The notes under the pieces were generated by a model. That model saw only the letters and a program-made list of their open reading frames with translations, was not told the origin of the DNA and searched no databases. DNA of 64,000 nucleotides from Armatimonadota bacterium (GTDB lineage: Bacteria; Armatimonadota; HRBIN16), in contig BPGU01000004.1 of the NCBI GenBank assembly GCA_026003195.1, forward strand, positions 70,317-134,316, given 5' to 3'. Position 1 is the first letter of the stretch; each line of letters starts with the position of its first letter. A program made the position numbers and the translations under genes. Below are positions 2,883-25,898 of this stretch, piece by piece.

Positions 2883-4585
2883 CCTCCCTCCAGTTCAATA
2901 TAGCCGTTGAAAGTCTGCGCTACCTCTTGCGCGTATTGTTCAACATCTATCTCCTCATCATCCTGTCTTTGCTGTGTTGTCTGGCTCGCCGAACGAGAAC
3001 CGATGCTCGTTTGCTGCAGTTCACACCGGATGGTCATCGCCCTGCCACCCAGAAAGCGCGAGATGGTCTGCTCCACAAACTGGCGCCGCTTGTCGGACTG
3101 CATCTGGGCGTATGCGAACTCCGTGCGGAACTGCAGAACCACTGTATTCTTCCCTTCTAAGCGCACCGGCTTGGCGTCACGAAGCACCTCTGCACCGCCG
3201 CGACTGCGCTCCGCTACTCTGGCGATAATTTGTTCCCACCTGCCCTGAACCAGCTTCAGCAGTTCGAGTGCGTCGGCTTCTGGCTGCGAGGTCGTCACCG
3301 GCTCGGACGGGGCACTGGCAGCTGCAGGAGCCGACGCAGGAGCTGAAGCGGTGGGTGCGGATGCCTGTCTGGTTTCCTCAGGGCGAGAAGGGAAGGGCGG
3401 GGGAATATTCTCCTTCGCCCTGGCTTCGGTAACTGGCGGTGTCGTCGCGGCGGGTTTTACTGCCGTTTGCCCGCTGTTCAAGGGGGCAGCCGGTTCCGTT
3501 TCCTGTTTCATGCGGGCTATCTGTACCATCGCCATATCCAGAAGCACGCGCTGTTGGGGCACGTTACGCAATTGCGCCTGAGCACGCACGAGGATATCCA
3601 GCATCCCGCTCAGCGTGTCGGGGGTGAAATGCTGTGCCAGTGCTTTGAGCGCGCTCCGTTGTGCCACAGGAAGGCTTTCATCCAGTGCGCCTACCCGGGC
3701 GTACAGCAGATCGCGGACGCGCTGGGCAACTGCCTCCAGCACAGTGCGCACGCTACTCCCACGTCGCAGCATCTCGTCCGCCGCCATTAACGCCTTTGCC
3801 ACATCGCCGCGTGCAGCGGCGTTTATCACTGCACCGACCGCCTCTTCATCCACAATGCCCAGCACCGAGCGCACGGTCTCGTCATCTACATGTCCGCCTG
3901 CATATGCCAGAACCTGCTCCAGCAAGCTCAGGGCGTCCCGGAAGGAACCATCTGCCGCTCGCGCGATGGCTTGCACTGCTTCTGGCTCGGCGGTCAGACC
4001 TTCGCGCTCCAGAACGGTGTGGATGCGGAGAACCAGGTCTTCCAGAGAGGCGCGGCGGAAATCAAAGCGGATACAGCGCGAACGGATCGTGATGGGCACA
4101 CGCTGTACCTCCGTGGTCGCCAGCACAAACACCACATGCGGAGGCGGTTCTTCCAGCGTTTTGAGCAGGGCATCAAAAGCTTTGGCGGAGAGGTCGTGCA
4201 CTTCGTCGATGATGTATACCTTGTACCGCGCCTGCTGGGGCATATACTGCGCGTTCTCGATGATGGTCTCGCGCACGTCGTCGATGCCCGTTTCCGAGGC
4301 GGCGTCCATCTCTATCACGTCCACCGCCCTGCCCTCGCGAATGGCGATGCACATCGCACACCGGTCACATGGGGTAGGAGTAGGGCCCTGCTCGCAGTTC
4401 AATGCCTTTGCCAGCAGGCGCGCTGTGGTAGTCTTGCCCGTGCCGCGCGGTCCGCAGAACAGATAGGCGTGAGCCACTTTGCCTAAGCGGATGGCGTTCT
4501 GCAGCGTCTGGGTCACGTGCTGCTGCCCGATGACGTCTTCGAACGTCTGCGAGCGGTATTTCCTGTAGAGTGCGATGTGTGCCAT
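2879..4585 (-). CDS. dnaX: DNA polymerase III subunit gamma/tau
   Basis: 568 aa. AAA+ clamp-loader N-terminus (YRSQTFEDVIGQ, GPRGTGKTTTARLLAKALNCE, zinc-module cysteines). Pro/Ala-rich linker and C-terminal tau region. Confidence 0.9.
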   Translation of the reverse strand: MAHIALYRKYRSQTFEDVIGQQHVTQTLQNAIRLGKVAHAYLFCGPRGTGKTTTARLLAKALNCEQGPTPTPCDRCAMCIAIREGRAVDVIEMDAASETGIDDVRETIIENAQYMPQQARYKVYIIDEVHDLSAKAFDALLKTLEEPPPHVVFVLATTEVQRVPITIRSRCIRFDFRRASLEDLVLRIHTVLEREGLTAEPEAVQAIARAADGSFRDALSLLEQVLAYAGGHVDDETVRSVLGIVDEEAVGAVINAAARGDVAKALMAADEMLRRGSSVRTVLEAVAQRVRDLLYARVGALDESLPVAQRSALKALAQHFTPDTLSGMLDILVRAQAQLRNVPQQRVLLDMAMVQIARMKQETEPAAPLNSGQTAVKPAATTPPVTEARAKENIPPPFPSRPEETRQASAPTASAPASAPAAASAPSEPVTTSQPEADALELLKLVQGRWEQIIARVAERSRGGAEVLRDAKPVRLEGKNTVVLQFRTEFAYAQMQSDKRRQFVEQTISRFLGGRAMTIRCELQQTSIGSRSASQTTQQRQDDEEIDVEQYAQEVAQTFNGYIELEGG

Positions 4586-4588
4586 GGT

Positions 4589-5608
4589 TCACAGGTTGGC
4601 GGAAAGCCATTCCTTGAGTATGCTCACCAGCGCGGGCGCAAGAGGTCGCTGTGGGTTTGTCAACACGTCCTGCGTATCGCCCGTCGCAGCATCCTTGAAA
4701 GCATGAGCTGTCCCTCCGATGACTTTCAACTCCACCTGGCTATTTCCTGCGCTGCGTGCATGTTGCAACAGCAGCTCCCCATCCTGTTTGGGCGATACCC
4801 TCTTGTCCATCTCGCCGTACACCAGCAACACAGGAACCTTCACCAGTTTCAAACGCGCCACCGGGTTTTCAAAGTAGAACTCCTGCAAGTAAGGGCGGTC
4901 GGGCAGCATGAAGTAAGGAGCCACGTCCTCGTGCAGAGGAGGCATCGGCAGGCGATAGTAAAGGGCGGCAATGGCGGTGTCAAAATCCCCCAGTCTGCGC
5001 TGGATTTTATCTGCCGACAAGCCCTCGTTTCGCCATCGTTGCTGGAGGTTTTCGCGCAGGATGACAGCGGGCGTGCGCCCCGGCGGAGCCAGACACACCA
5101 GCACTTTGGGCGGGTCAGGCAGTTCTCCCGCCAGCGCCATCCCTATCAGCGCGCCGTCTTCATAACCCAGCACTCCCACGCGCCTGGGGTCCACCTCCGG
5201 CTGCTGACGCAGGAATTGCAAAGCGGCGGCTGCATCGCGGGCGACCTGGCTCAGGGTGGTTTTGCCCTCTTCTTTCTGGGGTATTTTGCTTGCGCCGACA
5301 CCGCGTTTGTCATAGCGCAGGGTCACATATCCCATCTGCGCCAGCTGCTGTGCCAGCTGGCGATAGAGGTCGGTGTTCAGTCCATCGCCGTTACCGTTGC
5401 GGTCTACCGCGCCGCTGCCGGGGATCATCAGCAGGGCAGGCAACTGGGAGGTACGCTGGGGCACGCTCAGCGTCCCCACCAGCACCACCCCATCGCTCTG
5501 AAAACGCACTTCGCGTTCATCCGCCAGAAGAGCCGTTGCCAGTATCAACGTGATCCCGATACCGACCAGCGCGGAACGCATCCTGTTCATCCACTTCATC
5601 ACAGACAT
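4589..5608 (-). CDS. Secreted alpha/beta-hydrolase fold protein (dienelactone-hydrolase-like)
   Basis: The ORF runs to 5824, but a signal peptide (MKWMNRMRSALVGIGITLILATALLA) begins at an internal Met near 5599–5608, so the upstream extension is probably not translated. Alpha/beta hydrolase signature is present, but the usual GxSxG elbow reads GYEDG, which is noncanonical. Confidence 0.55.
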   Translation of the reverse strand: MSVMKWMNRMRSALVGIGITLILATALLADEREVRFQSDGVVLVGTLSVPQRTSQLPALLMIPGSGAVDRNGNGDGLNTDLYRQLAQQLAQMGYVTLRYDKRGVGASKIPQKEEGKTTLSQVARDAAAALQFLRQQPEVDPRRVGVLGYEDGALIGMALAGELPDPPKVLVCLAPPGRTPAVILRENLQQRWRNEGLSADKIQRRLGDFDTAIAALYYRLPMPPLHEDVAPYFMLPDRPYLQEFYFENPVARLKLVKVPVLLVYGEMDKRVSPKQDGELLLQHARSAGNSQVELKVIGGTAHAFKDAATGDTQDVLTNPQRPLAPALVSILKEWLSANL

Positions 5609-18387: not shown

Positions 18388-18392
18388 CCGCA

Positions 18393-18427
18393 GGGGCAGG
18401 GGCAGAGCTCTGCCCGCCCCTTTCTCA
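18393..18427. terminator. GC-rich palindromic hairpin between convergent genes (putative bidirectional terminator)
   Basis: GGGCAGAGCTCTGCCC perfect palindrome, followed by CCCCTTTCTC. Confidence 0.45.
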
Positions 18428-18431
18428 CTGC

Positions 18432-19523
18432 TCAGAACTGATAAGAGTAGTAGACAGCGATACCTTGCTGGCGTGCGTATTCTTCCACATCCCGCTCGGA
18501 TATCATGTGGGTTACCAGTATCGGGAATGGATTGGGATATGCGCCCTGTAGCCGCTGCAGTTTGCGACGCACAAAGGCATCGACGTCGTTCTTCGAGAGC
18601 TGCGCTTTGCTTTCACCTACGATGGTGATGATATCGCCGTTGCGACGCGCCTGCCCAAAGATATTGACCTCGATGTACTCACCGGTATTGTCCGCCACGA
18701 ACTGCCTCTTCAGGTCGCCCTCTATCTCTATGCCGAAGTCCCGTGCGAGCAGGCGTGGCAAAGCTTTGTACGCCTCGTTCTCAATCGTGTACCCCACGGT
18801 GATAGAGAGGCCGCCAACCTGCTTGCGCAGGTCATCTAACCCCTGTGTGAGGCGGCGGATGTCTTCCTGAGTTTGCTGTTGCACCTGGATCAGCTGTTGC
18901 ATCATCCTCTGCAGGTTGCCAATCTCCTGCGAGTGCTGTTGTGTCACCTGCACCAGCTCCGCCGTTTGCTGCCTTAGTTCAGCAATTTCGCGGGAGTGCT
19001 GTTCGGTGACCTGAAGCAGCCTGTTCACCGCCTCCCGCAACTCGGCGATGGCTTCGGTGTTGCGCTGGGTCGCCTCCCGCAACTCGGCGATGGCTTCGGT
19101 GTTGCGCTGGGTCGCCTCCCGCAACTCGGCGATGGCTTGGGTGTTCTCGCGCACCATCTGCCTCAGTTCGGCAATCTCGCGAGAGTGCTGCTCGGTAATC
19201 TCAAACAGCCTGTTCACCGCCTCCCGCAACTCGGCGATGGCTTGGGTGTTCTCGCGCACCATCTGCCTCAGTTCGGCAATCTCGCGAGAGTGCTGCTCGG
19301 TGACCTGAAGCAGGTTCGCGAGGACGCTTTCGATGCGGGCAAAACGCTCTTCTACCTCCCGCCGCAGCGCGGTGGTTTCCTCATACAGCGTGCGGAACCA
19401 CTTTTCGCTCATCGATTCCTGGAGCTCTGTAAACGCGCTACCCAGCACCTCCGCGATGCCTTCTGCAGCGGCGGGATCCATTTTGTCCTTTAGCTTTTCG
19501 TAGATGGTCAACGTGTCTATCAT
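18432..19523 (-). CDS. Coiled-coil repeat protein with C-terminal PD-(D/E)xK-like (restriction-endonuclease-fold) domain
   Basis: Start placed at MIDTLTIYEKLKDK, with RBS GAGGGAG. Central heptad-rich region built from 14-aa and 34-aa repeats (EAIAELREATQRNT; VTEQHSREIAELRQMVRENTQAIAELREAVNRLL). C-terminus reads GEYIEVNIFGQARRNGDIITIVGESK (D...ExK). Confidence 0.6.
   Translation of the reverse strand: MIDTLTIYEKLKDKMDPAAAEGIAEVLGSAFTELQESMSEKWFRTLYEETTALRREVEERFARIESVLANLLQVTEQHSREIAELRQMVRENTQAIAELREAVNRLFEITEQHSREIAELRQMVRENTQAIAELREATQRNTEAIAELREATQRNTEAIAELREAVNRLLQVTEQHSREIAELRQQTAELVQVTQQHSQEIGNLQRMMQQLIQVQQQTQEDIRRLTQGLDDLRKQVGGLSITVGYTIENEAYKALPRLLARDFGIEIEGDLKRQFVADNTGEYIEVNIFGQARRNGDIITIVGESKAQLSKNDVDAFVRRKLQRLQGAYPNPFPILVTHMISERDVEEYARQQGIAVYYSYQF
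18940..19320. repeat. Intragenic perfect tandem DNA repeats (2 x 42 nt, 2 x 102 nt plus diverged flanking copies)
   Basis: CGCCTCCCGCAACTCGGCGATGGCTTCGGTGTTGCGCTGGGT occurs twice in tandem. A 102-nt unit (CCTGTTCACCGCCTCCCGCAACTCGGCGATGGCTTGGGTGTTCTCGCGCACCATCTGCCTCAGTTCGGCAATCTCGCGAGAGTGCTGCTCGGT...) occurs twice with about 3 mismatches. All are in frame with the minus-strand CDS. Confidence 0.8.
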
Positions 19524-19581
19524 GGACGCTCCCTCACGTACCGTTCCACTCGAATTATACCACCACGGGGCAAAATCTGTC

Positions 19582-20649
19582 TCAACGCAGCTTTTTGCCC
19601 GTGACCACCTCGTAAGCGGCGAGCACATTGTCCACCGGCGTGTTGGGCTGGATGCAGTGCGAAGGAGCGAAGATATAGCCTCCGTCCTTCCCAATGACCT
19701 CCACACGATGCTTTGCCTCGGCGATGCAGTCCTCTATTGTGCCGAAGGGAAGTGTTCTCTGGGTGCTGATGAGCCCGCACAGGGTGAGCTTATCGCCGAC
19801 CTCGCGTTTGATCTCTTCGGGGTTCATGCCCACCGGCTCAGGCTGCATGGCGTCCAGGATGTCCAGCCCCATCTCCACGAAGCGCGGCTGCAGTTTGCGT
19901 GTGCTCCCGCAGCTGTGCATCATCACCTTGCAACCGTACTGATGCCCCAGGTCGTAGAACTTTTGCAAGCGCGGGCGGAAGAAGCGGTCAAAAACCTCTG
20001 GAGAAACCATTGGACCAAGCTGATTGCCCAGGTCCTCCCCCACACAGAGCACATCTATCAGACCGTCTGCCTCCTCCAGTCCGCGCTTCACGAACTCATA
20101 ATAGAACTCCACGCGATGGTCAATGATGGCAACCCCCACTTCGTCTTCGGTGAGGATATCTATCAGCACCTGCTCCATGCCTCTGCCCCGGCTGACGCCG
20201 TTAATGATGTCGGGAATACCTGCCCCACCAAAGCACACGACGTAATCTCCCACCGCTTTGCAGGCTTCCTTGAGATGCAAGAAGTCGTAGTCGTCCACCG
20301 AGGGCCAGGGGTAGTCCTCCACCTCTTTCAACGTGCGCATATGGGCAAACGGAAGTTCGTACGCCTCCAGGTACTCGCCGAAACCGTATGACTGCCGAAT
20401 GTAGCCGATCCCCCACTCGTCGTAGTACGCCACCGGGCTACCCGGCTCTGGTTGGCGTAGTGGTTTCTTGCGCGGCACACCCACTGTGCGAAAGTCCACC
20501 TCCAGAACCTCCAGCAGGTTCTGACCCGGAAACCGCTCCTGCAGCTTCGCCTCGAATTCAGGGGTGGTGTAAAACTGGATAGGCGGTCTATCCGGCTGCT
20601 TGTGAGCTACGCACAGAGCAAATCGCTCCTTGGGACTCATCCACGACAT
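19582..20649 (-). CDS. Uroporphyrinogen decarboxylase (URO-D) family protein
   Basis: 355 aa. URO-D / MtaA-like (beta/alpha)8 pattern. Confidence 0.7.
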   Translation of the reverse strand: MSWMSPKERFALCVAHKQPDRPPIQFYTTPEFEAKLQERFPGQNLLEVLEVDFRTVGVPRKKPLRQPEPGSPVAYYDEWGIGYIRQSYGFGEYLEAYELPFAHMRTLKEVEDYPWPSVDDYDFLHLKEACKAVGDYVVCFGGAGIPDIINGVSRGRGMEQVLIDILTEDEVGVAIIDHRVEFYYEFVKRGLEEADGLIDVLCVGEDLGNQLGPMVSPEVFDRFFRPRLQKFYDLGHQYGCKVMMHSCGSTRKLQPRFVEMGLDILDAMQPEPVGMNPEEIKREVGDKLTLCGLISTQRTLPFGTIEDCIAEAKHRVEVIGKDGGYIFAPSHCIQPNTPVDNVLAAYEVVTGKKLR

Positions 20650-21759: not shown

Positions 21760-21839
21760 GAGAACCTCCAGCACGCAGAGAATATCCATCTACAGCATAC
21801 ACGCCACGGTGCTGAAAATCAACCCTGAGGAGGGAACTC

Positions 21840-22874
21840 GTGCATAATCTGGATACATTCCTTGAACCCATCCGTGCCGAGGCGAAAGTGCCTGCGCTGG
21901 CGGCAGCGGTGATACAAAAGAACAAACTGGTCGCGCTAGGTGCGGTGGGTAAACGCCGGGCAGACAGAGATGACCCCATACGGCACGATGACCGTTTTCA
22001 TATTGGCTCCTGTACCAAATCCATGACCGCTACGATGATTGCCCGACTGGTAGAGATGGGCAAATTGGATTGGGGAAGCATGGTCGCAGAAGTACTGCCT
22101 GCCCTTCGCAAAAGGGTCCGTCGCGAATACTGGAGGGTCACTCTAGAGCAACTGCTTACGCACCGTTCCGGTCTACCCGAAGACCGCACTCCTCACCCCC
22201 AGGTATTCCCCAAGCTGTGGAGCCTCTCCCCGAAACAACGTTCGCAGGCGGCGGAGATTATCCTGCAGCAAGAACCTGTAGCCAGGCCGGGTGAGAGAAC
22301 CATCTACTCCAACGGCGGCTACGTGGTGGCAGGCGCCATGGCGGAGGCGGTGACAGGCAAGACGTGGGAGGAATTGATGGACGAGCATCTGTTTCGCCCG
22401 CTGGGGATAAAAAGCGCCGGGTTCGGCGCGCCTGCCACCGGAGCATGGGGACATCGCTCTGGTGTAGATGGATACCTTCCTGTGCCGCCCTCGCCCTTTG
22501 CAGATAACCCGCCTGTGCTCGGTCCCGCAGGGACTGTGCACCTGTCACTATCGGACTGGGCGCGCTACGCCATCATCCATTTGCGGGGATCGGTCGGAGA
22601 GCACCCTCCCCTCCTTCGTAAAGACACCTTTGCCACACTACACACTCCTCCCCACAACAGCACGTACGCCATGGGCTGGGGCATCGTACAACCAACCTGG
22701 GCACGCGGACGGGTACTGCAGCACGCGGGAAGCAACACCATGTGGTTTGCCCTTATCCTGCTGGTGCCGGATGCGCAAGCGGGCTTGCTGATAGCGACCA
22801 ACGCCGCCGATGAAAAGGCAATGGATGCGGCGCGCCGTGCAGCGGATACCCTCCGCGCGCAGTATATCCGGTAG
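21840..22874 (+). CDS. Serine hydrolase, beta-lactamase/transpeptidase-like family
   Basis: SxxK active-site motif ([12 protein letters not shown]), YSN-like and HxG-like downstream motifs. 344 aa. Confidence 0.8.
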
Positions 22875-23912: not shown

Positions 23913-25898
23913 ATGGCAACAACTATCTGGCAAAGAATACGTGCAGAAGCAGAAACGCAGGAACAAGCGGTTGCCGTACAGCGTGGCGTGACTCTCCGTG
24001 CTGTAGTGGTCGGTGTCATTCTTGCACCGCTGATTGCGTGGTTCAACATCTCTATCGAAGCCATTCGCTATGCGGGGCAGCCGACCACTATCTCGTTGTT
24101 TCCTCACATCCTGTTCGTGCTTTTGTGCTTGATTGCGGTGAACGCGGTAGTCGGGCGCATCGTACCCCGGTGGCGTTTCTCCCCCGCAGAGTTGATGACC
24201 ATCTACTTCTTTACTCTGATGACGGCGGTGATGGCGTCGCATGACCTGATTGAGGTCATCACGCCTATTCTGACCTATCCCTTCAAGTACGCCAACCCTG
24301 CCAACCGCTGGGACAGCGATGTCATACCCTATCTGCCCAAATGGCTGTTTATCAGTGACCCCGATGCGGTGGACAAGTACTATATCGGCAACGCCAACTT
24401 CTGGAACGGACGTGACCTGCGCATCTGGACACCACCCCTGCTCATCTGGACGGGCTTCTTTACGGTGCTGGCGTTCGGCATGTTCTGCTTGAATGTGCTG
24501 CTACGCAAGCAGTGGACCGACCGTGAACGCCTCTCTTACCCCCTGGTGCAGCTGCCGCTGGAGCTGGTACAGCCGCGCGTGCCTGTGTTCCAGAATCGGC
24601 TGTTCTGGATTGCGTTCGCCATCGCTGCGATAAACGACATCTGGTTCGGCTTAAATCGGTTGTTTCCCACCATCCCGCAGCCCTACGTGCGCTGGCAGAC
24701 GCTGGAGCAGTATATCACCACGCCGCCGTGGAACGCGATTGGCTGGCTACCGCTGGCGTTCTTTCCCTGGATTGTGGGCATCGGGGTGCTGCTGCCTACC
24801 GACTTGCTCTTCTCGTGCTGGTTCTTCTTCTGGATGTGGAAGCTGCAACCCATCATCGCCGCCTACTACGGCTGGAACCAGATACCCGGCTTTCCCTACG
24901 TGAATGAGCAATCGTTCGGTGCGTATATGGGCATTGCACTCTTCACACTTTACACCGCAAGGAAGGCACTGGCGCAGGGGTTCTCGGCGATATGGAGAGG
25001 CTCGGATGGCAGCGACAAAGGTGAGGCATTACCCTACCGCTGGGCGGCGCTGGGCTTCTTAGCGAGCCTGGCAGCGATTTACCTTTTCTTCCTTTCTACC
25101 GGTATGAGCGGCTGGGTGATCGCGCTGTCTCTACTGATCTATCTGGCGATCTCTTTAGCGGTGACCCGTATGCGCGCGGAACTGGGCCCTCCCGCCCATG
25201 ACCTGCACGACTCGGGTCCGCAGAGGCTCATCCCCCTGCTGTTTGGCGTGGAGAACCTGAAGCGGCAGGACCTGGTGATGTTCGCACCGATTCAGGGCTT
25301 CAACCGCGCTTACCGTGCCCATCCCATGCCCACGCACATCGAAGGGTTGCGTGCAGCGGAGCGAACACGTTCCTCGATGCGGGCGATGTTCTGGGTGCTG
25401 GTGTTCGCAGTGTTCTGGGGAACGCTCACCGGCTTCTTTGTGAACGTGCACCTGCACTATCAGTGGGGCGCGGCATCGAAGGCGGACACCCCCTACGTCA
25501 GTACCATCTTCGGCAGGGAGCCGTACGACCGGATTACCTCCTTGCTGTCGGGATCGGTTTCCTCCCTACAGAAGCGTAACGTGATATGGGCGATGATGGT
25601 GGGCTTCGGCGTCACTGCGGTGCTGAGCATCTTCCGTATGAACATTGCCAACTTCCCCTTGCATCCGGTGGGCTACGCTATTTCCAGCAGCTGGAGCCTC
25701 AGCGTGTTATGGTTTTCCCTGCTGGTGGCGTGGGTGTGCAAGGTGACCATCATGAAGATAGGTGGGTTGCGCAGCTACCAGCGGGCGTTGCCGTTCTTCC
25801 TGGGGCTGGTGCTGGGCGAGTGCACGATAGGTAGCCTGTGGATGCTGGTGAGCATCTTCACCGGCACGAAAACATTTATTGTCTGGCCCTACGGATAA
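23913..25898 (+). CDS. Large polytopic integral membrane protein, function unknown
   Basis: 661 aa with at least 12 predicted TM helices. Immediately upstream of a Gfo/Idh/MocA oxidoreductase, with an 11–14 nt gap. Confidence 0.55.
   Translation: MATTIWQRIRAEAETQEQAVAVQRGVTLRAVVVGVILAPLIAWFNISIEAIRYAGQPTTISLFPHILFVLLCLIAVNAVVGRIVPRWRFSPAELMTIYFFTLMTAVMASHDLIEVITPILTYPFKYANPANRWDSDVIPYLPKWLFISDPDAVDKYYIGNANFWNGRDLRIWTPPLLIWTGFFTVLAFGMFCLNVLLRKQWTDRERLSYPLVQLPLELVQPRVPVFQNRLFWIAFAIAAINDIWFGLNRLFPTIPQPYVRWQTLEQYITTPPWNAIGWLPLAFFPWIVGIGVLLPTDLLFSCWFFFWMWKLQPIIAAYYGWNQIPGFPYVNEQSFGAYMGIALFTLYTARKALAQGFSAIWRGSDGSDKGEALPYRWAALGFLASLAAIYLFFLSTGMSGWVIALSLLIYLAISLAVTRMRAELGPPAHDLHDSGPQRLIPLLFGVENLKRQDLVMFAPIQGFNRAYRAHPMPTHIEGLRAAERTRSSMRAMFWVLVFAVFWGTLTGFFVNVHLHYQWGAASKADTPYVSTIFGREPYDRITSLLSGSVSSLQKRNVIWAMMVGFGVTAVLSIFRMNIANFPLHPVGYAISSSWSLSVLWFSLLVAWVCKVTIMKIGGLRSYQRALPFFLGLVLGECTIGSLWMLVSIFTGTKTFIVWPYG

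Follow-up and report, generated by a model that had tools for sequence, protein, structure and literature searches.

A predicted PD-(D/E)xK nuclease on a coiled-coil stalk that appears to vary in length by whole heptads in an Armatimonadota bacterium

The gene described here lies on the minus strand of a 64,000-nucleotide (nt) stretch of an Armatimonadota genome (assembly GCA_026003195.1, contig BPGU01000004.1, positions 70,317 to 134,316), the whole of which we call the window, and encodes a long coiled-coil protein that ends in a predicted nuclease domain of the PD-(D/E)xK type (Table 1). Its start is the ATG at 19523, which opens the MIDTL N-terminus common to all homologs; the program-made list of open reading frames (ORFs) runs the coding sequence (CDS) further, to a GTG at 19706. 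The product is 100% identical to KatS3mg023_3128, a protein of an Armatimonadota hot-spring metagenome-assembled genome (MAG; our P0002), and lacks both a signal peptide and a membrane segment. A promoter-like site is placed in the 58-nt gap after an upstream URO-D-like gene, three such sites having been found against 0.5 expected in shuffles, and the CDS appears to be transcribed from its own promoter. At the other end, a GC-rich palindrome fills the 44-nt gap between the nuclease gene and a convergent oxidoreductase gene and is probably a bidirectional terminator hairpin. No paralog of the gene was found within the window, and an antisense ORF on the plus strand (18996-19493; 165 amino acids, aa, with LPQLGDGFGVALGR occurring twice) was rejected as a gene, being an artefact that mirrors the repeats.

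Table 1. Features of the stalked nuclease gene and of its flanks, in window coordinates
Feature	Position	Strand	Remark
CDS, 363 aa plus stop	18432..19523	minus	stop included at 18432 end
Head (N-terminal) with the proximal part of the stalk, residues 1-70	19314..19523	minus	orthologs conserve sequence
Variable part of the stalk, 21 heptad cassettes (residues 71-217)	18873..19313	minus	heptad-wise layout
105-nt (35-aa, 5-heptad) tandem duplication	19113-19301	minus	Tandem Repeats Finder (TRF): 1.8 copies, 100% matches, score 378
42-nt (14-aa, 2-heptad) tandem array	19029-19145	minus	TRF: 2.8 copies, 98% matches, score 227
Invariant Q235-x-G237-G238, junction of stalk and nuclease domain	18810..18821	minus	predicted local distance difference test score (pLDDT) <50 at residues 232-240
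C-terminal predicted nuclease domain, ~120 aa	18435..18803	minus	AlphaFold2 (AF2) and Foldseek
E248 codon, motif I, first core helix	18780..18782	minus	invariant
E285 codon, motif II, start of second core strand, replaces PD aspartate	18669..18671	minus	invariant
E304-S305-K306 codons, (D/E)xK motif, third core strand	18606..18614	minus	E304 and K306 invariant
GAGGGA, Shine-Dalgarno-/ribosome-binding-like	19530-19535	minus	6 nt 5' of ATG
Promoter-like GAGACA-18-(TG)TATAAT	19554..19583	minus	10/12 matches, consensus match only
GC-rich palindrome including (GCAGGG) x 2.7	18388-18431	either strand	folds at -25 to -27 kcal/mol

The AF2 model of the full-length protein (mean pLDDT 84) contains a single unbroken helix from residue 17 to residue 263, followed by a compact alpha/beta domain. 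As modelled, the protein shows a head of ~45 aa, a helix of ~245 residues, a QxGG junction and a C-terminal domain with the restriction-endonuclease fold. Residues 232-240, around that junction, are the sole part of the full-length model with a confidence below 50, and the invariant QxGG is probably a hinge. The head consists of a short helix (residues 4-12) and a turn (D13-P17), after which the long helix begins; across the family it follows the looser pattern h..h...L...F....A..lA. No Pfam relative of the head was found, and its profile matched only designed helical-repeat proteins in the PDB. A presumed likeness to the heads of DUF1640/MCUR1 proteins was not substantiated, and we do not claim it. 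At the head-stalk junction many homologs carry NTVTKxEFNELK or VKASDFxELK (alignment A2, of homolog N-termini), a motif similar to the consensus published for the beta-layers of this family, [aliphatic]-A-T-K-[polar]-[D/E] (PMC4786415). The corresponding residues 37-46 of the window protein (19386-19415) read SMSEKWFRTL, a degenerate version with MSEKWF where homologs have VTKxEF.

Evidence for the nature of the C-terminal domain came mainly from structure prediction. The model of residues 218-363, built from an alignment of 36 sequences (A1), reached a pLDDT of 90.1 and a predicted template modelling score of 0.79, with the topology H-E-E-E-H-E-H-E. The best Foldseek matches in the PDB were MspJI, AF1548, Can2, EndoMS/NucS, BbvCI, AspBHI, Bax1 and NucC (E 1.7e-4 to 1e-2, probability 0.92-1.0), with MGME1 also among the matches; all the significant matches are PD-(D/E)xK nucleases, and the domain shares 15-19% sequence identity with MspJI, AspBHI, AF1548 and Can2. 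Comparisons at the sequence level gave weak hints toward restriction-endonuclease-like families (NA-iREase3, BpuJI, NucS_C and Mrr_cat): the best result of a Pfam scan of the domain was NA-iREase3 (E 0.057), and phmmer and family-profile searches against PDB sequences returned nothing significant (BpuJI, E 0.17).

The residues expected of a catalytic centre, E248, E285, E304 and K306, are unvarying in the alignments of 36 and of 41 sequences and stand on the expected secondary-structure elements. The third strand carries G303-E304-x-K306, and motif II is here a Glu and not an Asp (E285, in the context YIEVNIFG, where N287 is likewise invariant). The sequence-only reading had proposed a PD-(D/E)xK-like domain from a D...ExK arrangement in GDIITIVGESK; the fold, the Foldseek matches and the invariant catalytic set bear out the assignment, and the ExK (E304-S-K306) holds, whereas D297 varies among homologs and E285 is found in its stead. 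Since the catalytic set is invariant in diverse homologs, an active nuclease is likelier than a degenerate binding module, and from the model we infer that the domain is a metal-dependent DNA nuclease which would cleave DNA.

The stalk is built from a 14-aa super-repeat, [L..(V/T/M)..]-[(N/H)(T/S).(A/E)IAE], and its cassettes are of the types LLQVTEQ, HSREIAE, LRQMVRE, NTQAIAE, LREAVNR and LREATQR. In its core, I, V or T fills position a, and position d is taken in turn by Leu and by Asn or His; the stalk of the window protein has four heptads of the [V/T]xxN-T kind and four of the H-S kind, with the Asn or His at d. The earlier proposal that the repeats encode a heptad-rich coiled coil is confirmed by this periodicity. 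The AF2 monomer was not modelled as an antiparallel hairpin, which fits a parallel homo-oligomeric stalk, and a parallel dimer or trimer is accordingly the arrangement suggested by the modelling.

In the DNA, the stalk-coding part carries the two tandem arrays listed in Table 1. A scan for exact repeats found 84 nt of identity at an offset of 105 nt (19218-19301 equal to 19113-19196) and 68 nt at an offset of 42 nt, besides shorter ones of 38 nt at offset 189 and of 26 nt at each of the offsets 147 and 84. When the codons of the gene were shuffled 300 times, the longest exact repeat averaged 10.1 nt and never exceeded 15 nt; the observed repeats are therefore real and far above chance. Their offsets are multiples of 21 nt without exception. 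The near-identical tandem repeats noted from the sequence were thus recovered by both TRF and the exact-repeat scan, as were the more diverged copies said to flank them, which flank both arrays and form our families D2 and D3. As to unit size, the short unit of 42 nt (14 aa, reading LREATQR-NTEAIAE) stands as described; the long one measures 105 nt, or 35 aa and five heptads, and not the 102 nt and 34 aa first given.

The neighbourhood of the gene allowed us to follow it into related genomes. The order URO-D-like gene, stalked nuclease gene, GFO-IDH-MocA gene and ApbE gene recurs in five other loci (L001, L087, L088, L089 and L090), and the length variants described below are therefore true orthologs. 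This synteny is held across genomes ~82-93% identical, and the neighbours are housekeeping genes. The orthologs come in 11 distinct lengths of 307-461 aa, all of which are 6 mod 7; the variable part spans 13 to 35 heptads, a range of 154 aa or ~23 nm of helix, and the terminal domains remain 88-100% identical despite the differences in length. The distance from MIDTL to GExK obeys the same rule, being 1 mod 7 in 16/16 proteins of the window's clade (246-323 residues) and 6 mod 7 in 20/20 proteins of a second clade (216-335 residues).

Variation was also found between very close relatives. L087, L088 and L089, from three different samples, have flanks 99.2-99.4% identical and, judged by these flanks, belong to one species by any usual standard, and they encode proteins of 363, 370 and 384 aa. 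Further alleles of 412, 461 and 377 aa were found in metagenome and genome contigs. A scan of metagenomes yielded no same-species relatives of the window strain (the nearest was 79% identical), and further alleles of the sister lineage were gained from it. Besides number, the alleles vary in the type and order of their cassettes; for instance, LREVTQQ-NTKAIAE-LVRVTEK is present in P0008, P0011 and L091 and not in P0009 and P0010. One allele, P0012, stands for 12 identical member sequences.

The sequence-only reading had supposed that stalk length may vary and had suggested comparing strain assemblies and counting repeats in orthologs; both comparisons show that copy number varies, and that it does so in heptad steps. 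A copy number that differs between close strains, here L087, L088 and L089, is one of the marks of a contingency locus. A change in repeat number never shifts the frame in this gene, every allele being in frame with units that are multiples of 21 nt, and to judge from the alleles the outcome is length variation, not on/off phase-variable switching. That the coiled coil serves as a ruler, as was also proposed, found no support: a length range of 154 aa among orthologs with nearly invariant end domains points to a relaxed constraint on length. This result led us to propose that the exact length of the stalk is not tightly constrained, and that it is tolerated rather than tuned.

Comparison with L001, whose flanks are 88-93% identical to the window, gave information on selection and on how the cassettes change. 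Over 260 codons, the non-repeat parts of the two genes are 97% identical and differ by 22 synonymous and 0 non-synonymous substitutions, which implies strong purifying selection on the head and the nuclease domain. Within the stalk, ATQR is encoded by GCGACCCAGCGC twice in the window and by GCGACACAACGC three times in L001, and repeated cassettes within one genome use identical codons. Such homogeneity within a genome implies recent duplication or gene conversion in each lineage, that is, concerted evolution, in agreement with the recent or ongoing expansion first suspected from the sequence. In-frame heptads would continually be added and removed by replication slippage or unequal recombination, acting along with gene conversion among the cassettes. 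Since all offsets are multiples of 21 nt, cassette exchange moves whole heptads and the register is kept automatically, with no need to assume that selection for register acted at each single event.

The same behaviour was found beyond the orthologs. Of 72 family genes, taken from 79 genome loci, 34 repeat a stretch of 30 nt or more exactly within the gene. Exact repeats of 24 nt or more occur in 47 genes, and 39 of these have an offset divisible by 21 nt. In a minority the offset is 21n+12 nt (7n+4 aa), of the hendecad type. The instability of heptad cassettes is, as read from these genes, a family-wide trait. Offsets of 54, 75, 96, 117 or 138 nt were seen in L016, L028, L034, L038, L041, L045 and L060; they correspond to 18, 25, 32, 39 and 46 aa and thus to a hendecad-type stutter, not to pure heptads.

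The window protein is a member of a large family of coiled-coil-stalked PD-(D/E)xK nucleases without an assigned function, which is partly covered by the Pfam entries DUF3782 and DUF8196 and is a relative of PDDEXK_10/DUF1626. A profile search with the C-terminal domain recovered 1057 clusters at 50% identity with E ≤ 1e-3, and 715 with E ≤ 1e-10; in the matches the domain is always C-terminal, behind 0-240 residues. DUF8196 (PF26618), a newer entry, has weak precomputed matches to many homologs and none to the identical P0002. The architecture predicted by the AF2 models agrees with the published description of DUF1626 (PMC1913061), and a nuclease-like domain on a coiled coil, held at first to be unusual, had been described in 2007 (PMC1913061) and in 2016 (PMC4786415), in a family that is large. 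Matches of the full-length protein to Pfam, NCBIfam, PADLOC and PHROGs models (SMC, Rad50, GAS, tape-measure, LmuB, JetC and ZorA) were sub-threshold and were discarded as compositional coiled-coil noise. Likewise, the database labels 'chordopoxvirus fusion protein', 'Smc' and 'myosin heavy subunit' attached to homologs are artefacts of coiled-coil composition.

The carriers are mostly hot-spring, vent, anaerobic or thermophilic lineages and belong to the Armatimonadota, Thermodesulfobacteriota, Nitrospirota, Bacillota, Chloroflexota, Calditrichota, Acidobacteriota and some archaea. Among the cultivable carriers are Thermodesulforhabdus norvegica, Desulfovirgula thermocuniculi and Thermodesulfovibrio hydrogeniphilus. 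It is common for one genome to have several paralogs; Ch118, binchicken_co30_132 and S1_Bin_209_1, for example, have three loci each. An all-vs-all clustering of ORFs found no conserved partner gene across the 79 loci, only local synteny, and the Pfam-annotated neighbourhoods are unrelated among loci (metabolism, chemotaxis/flagella, SMC). In PADLOC, the C-terminal domain matched 0 families and the full-length matches to LmuB, JetC and ZorA covered the coiled coil only (14-29 bits). PHROG models gave no match to the domain, tblastn found no match in plasmid and phage records, and IMG/VR contained 1 locus among 2.9 million contigs.

Some loci deserve separate mention. In a Thermoanaerobacterales MAG (L026:3094-6441), a tyrosine-recombinase-like ORF (3952-5157) lies between two family paralogs that are on opposite strands, the sole mobile-element hint seen. 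In Desulfovirgula thermocuniculi (L040:10468-10719), an 83-aa fragment of the nuclease domain lies ~4 kb downstream of an intact family gene and is probably the pseudogene remnant of a duplication. An apparent upstream 'paralog' in L016 and L055 proved to be an unrelated FHA-domain membrane protein. Near the syntenic gene of L001, a PIN-domain gene and an 83-aa upstream gene (2933-3617) form a VapBC-like toxin-antitoxin pair; the window (~21790-21840) lacks this pair, which in L001 is inserted between a beta-lactamase-like and a beta-eliminating-lyase gene. The window also encodes, at 23913-25898, a 661-aa protein with DUF6785 and DUF6784 (E 4e-161 and 3e-34), which has the same position in the syntenic loci.

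We consider it highly probable that the gene encodes a stand-alone, chromosomally stable, coiled-coil-stalked PD-(D/E)xK nuclease whose stalk varies by heptad cassettes. In such a protein the heads and two or three metal-dependent nuclease domains would lie at opposite ends of a parallel stalk of ~35 nm, whose length would drift through cassette recombination, a wide range being tolerated. Our best guess for its role is that of a DNA-maintenance or anti-foreign-DNA endonuclease acting alone, without a dedicated partner gene. Several points weigh against this reading or parts of it. The alleles are short-read metagenome assemblies, in which unit-step collapse or mis-counting of tandem repeats is possible. 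For every member of the family, nuclease activity, substrate and oligomeric state are inferred. The cues to the oligomeric state conflict: a dimer is suggested by I/V at position a in combination with L at d, and a trimer by the beta-layer motif of relatives and by Asn at d followed by Thr, a feature of parallel trimeric coiled coils with N@d layers (Hartmann et al. 2009/2016); the modelling behind the oligomer call was of the monomer.

Placement in the named families belongs with these points. The window protein reached 15.8 bits (E 0.016) against DUF3782 (PF12644), whose threshold is 24.4, and its link to that entry is transitive only: a homolog (P0114, E 5e-51 to the query) passes DUF3782 with 25.2 bits, over the stalk-to-nuclease junction. 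Against PDDEXK_10/DUF1626 (PF07788), the C-terminal domain gave no match at E ≤ 10. A distant homolog (P0265) attained 19.8 bits (E 7.8e-4) for a cut-off of 21.2, a word-index search seeded with it returned no relative annotated PF07788, and the relationship therefore stays sub-threshold.

The role proposed above shares ground with two narrower explanations. According to one of them, the protein would be a stand-alone anti-phage or anti-plasmid defence nuclease whose diversity of stalk lengths is kept by conflict-driven diversifying selection; in one version of it, the head would recognise an invader and the stalk would determine how far the nuclease reaches. This idea draws on the nearest structural neighbours (MspJI, AspBHI, Can2, NucC and the Mrr-like AF1548), which are defence nucleases, and on the multiple paralogs per genome, the pair of paralogs around the integrase-like ORF in L026, the patchy distribution of DUF1626, suggestive of horizontal gene transfer (PMC3424549), and the operons that archaeal DUF1626 genes share with MNT/HEPN genes (PMC3710099). 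We nevertheless regard it as unlikely, given that the C-terminal domain has no PADLOC match, that plasmid and phage records gave nothing and viral contigs a single locus, and that the gene sits in kept synteny among housekeeping neighbours with no partner gene; moreover, 0 non-synonymous against 22 synonymous changes is unlike the fast evolution of defence specificity modules. According to the other, which we view as a tentative possibility, the protein would be an RmuC-like nuclease of DNA repair or recombination control, enriched in thermophiles, whose stalk polymorphism is neutral. A stable chromosomal location, the promoter-like site of its own and strong purifying selection are consistent with this, as are the structural matches to the repair enzymes EndoMS/NucS, Bax1 and MGME1 and the prevalence of hot-spring, vent or thermophilic carriers, where DNA damage is high. 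However, neither a sequence match to RmuC or any repair family nor a linkage to repair genes was found (an SMC neighbour in L081 is non-recurrent), and several paralogs per genome would be unusual for a core repair enzyme.

Other explanations concern the reality of the variation and of the enzyme. If the differences in length were short-read assembly artefacts, the gene would really have one fixed length; all the sequences are MAG or metagenome contigs, collapse also yields in-frame unit steps, and exact repeats of 68-84 nt, and of up to 197 nt in other alleles, approach or exceed common k-mer sizes. Against this, eleven lengths come from independent samples and assemblers, the alleles differ by unique cassette types and orders and not by counts alone, identical alleles are repeatedly recovered (the 12 sequences of P0012), and the exact repeats of the window, at most 84 nt, are below the usual final k-mers. 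Because the alleles differ in cassette composition, assembly collapse alone is insufficient as a cause, and we judge this explanation improbable. Even less credible is that the protein is a structural or cytoskeletal coiled coil with a C-terminal domain that serves for binding and not for catalysis. In favour of this are such database labels as 'Smc', 'myosin heavy subunit' and 'methyl-accepting chemotaxis protein', many sub-threshold coiled-coil matches (SMC, Rad50, GAS, EzrA and tape-measure) and the weak match to the 'inactive REase' family NA-iREase3 (E 0.057); yet the coiled-coil matches are far under curated cut-offs and confined to the repetitive helix, and E/E/ExK is invariant across 41 diverse homologs, which would be unexpected in an inactivated domain. 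At the far end of what we would entertain, and hardly to be credited, the stalk might be a functional, evolvable spacer, the head binding a fixed landmark, of the cell or of an invader, and the number of heptads setting the distance of the cut. If that were true, recombination would yield enzymes that differ in reach, conflict-driven selection would keep them as a standing polymorphism, and the protein would be a 'variable ruler' nuclease without a characterised precedent among PD-(D/E)xK enzymes.

The family has been known for nearly 20 years, comprises more than 1000 clusters from thermophilic and anaerobic bacteria and some archaea, and is still without an assigned function; the locus does not by itself open a long-standing question. 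The syntenic series of alleles of 307-461 aa with constant ends does represent a natural experiment on whether stalk length matters. There is also a lesson for annotation: the preferred label for such proteins is nuclease, and not cytoskeletal or viral fusion protein.

Among known systems, RmuC likewise joins a coiled-coil region to a PD-(D/E)xK nuclease, of a different subfamily, and has an N-terminal membrane anchor. It resembles the window protein in being a single-gene unit with a long helical N-terminal part before a restriction-endonuclease-fold domain; it differs in showing no detectable sequence similarity and in not being known for repeat-length polymorphism. MspJI, AspBHI, AF1548 and Can2, whose nuclease domains match the C-terminal domain best in structure, share its E...D/E...ExK catalytic layout, but they carry DNA-modification-reading or CARF sensor domains where the window protein has a coiled-coil stalk.

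The closest likeness is to the stalked families themselves. Knizewski et al. described in 2007 the DUF1626/COG5493 proteins as PD-(D/E)xK proteins having a coiled coil at the N-terminus, carried by Sulfolobales, Chloroflexus, Roseiflexus and Kuenenia and often mis-annotated as tropomyosin-like (PMC1913061). These share with the window protein the combination of coiled coil and PD-(D/E)xK domain, its topology, the tropomyosin- or myosin-like mislabels and the unassigned function, and are found in thermophilic archaea, Chloroflexi and anammox bacteria; in motif III, the window protein keeps the Lys, whereas many DUF1626 members have Thr. The prokaryotes' DUF3782 endonuclease family treated by Hartmann et al. 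(2016, eLife) follows the same concept of a family, in which a PD-(D/E)xK domain is joined to a coiled-coil stalk, and its bacterial members have plain heptad stalks (PMC4786415). The subject of that work was the nonad and beta-layer structure of crenarchaeal members and of nuclease-less relatives (Tcar0761), and it describes neither DNA-level tandem repeats nor strain-level length polymorphism (PMC4786415). As far as the searchable literature shows, a heptad-stepped allelic series at the strain level is undescribed for the family.

By analogy, the length polymorphism of the stalk resembles the well-known behaviour of other repeat-encoded coiled coils. Streptococcal M proteins and the stalks of trimeric autotransporters likewise contain heptad units encoded by in-frame tandem DNA repeats, which are gained and lost by recombination between strains, and in the stalks of trimeric autotransporter adhesins Asn forms polar layers at core position d (N@d motif; cited in PMC4786415). 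M proteins and autotransporters, however, are secreted to the surface and subjected to immune or host selection, whereas the window protein ends in a predicted nuclease domain.

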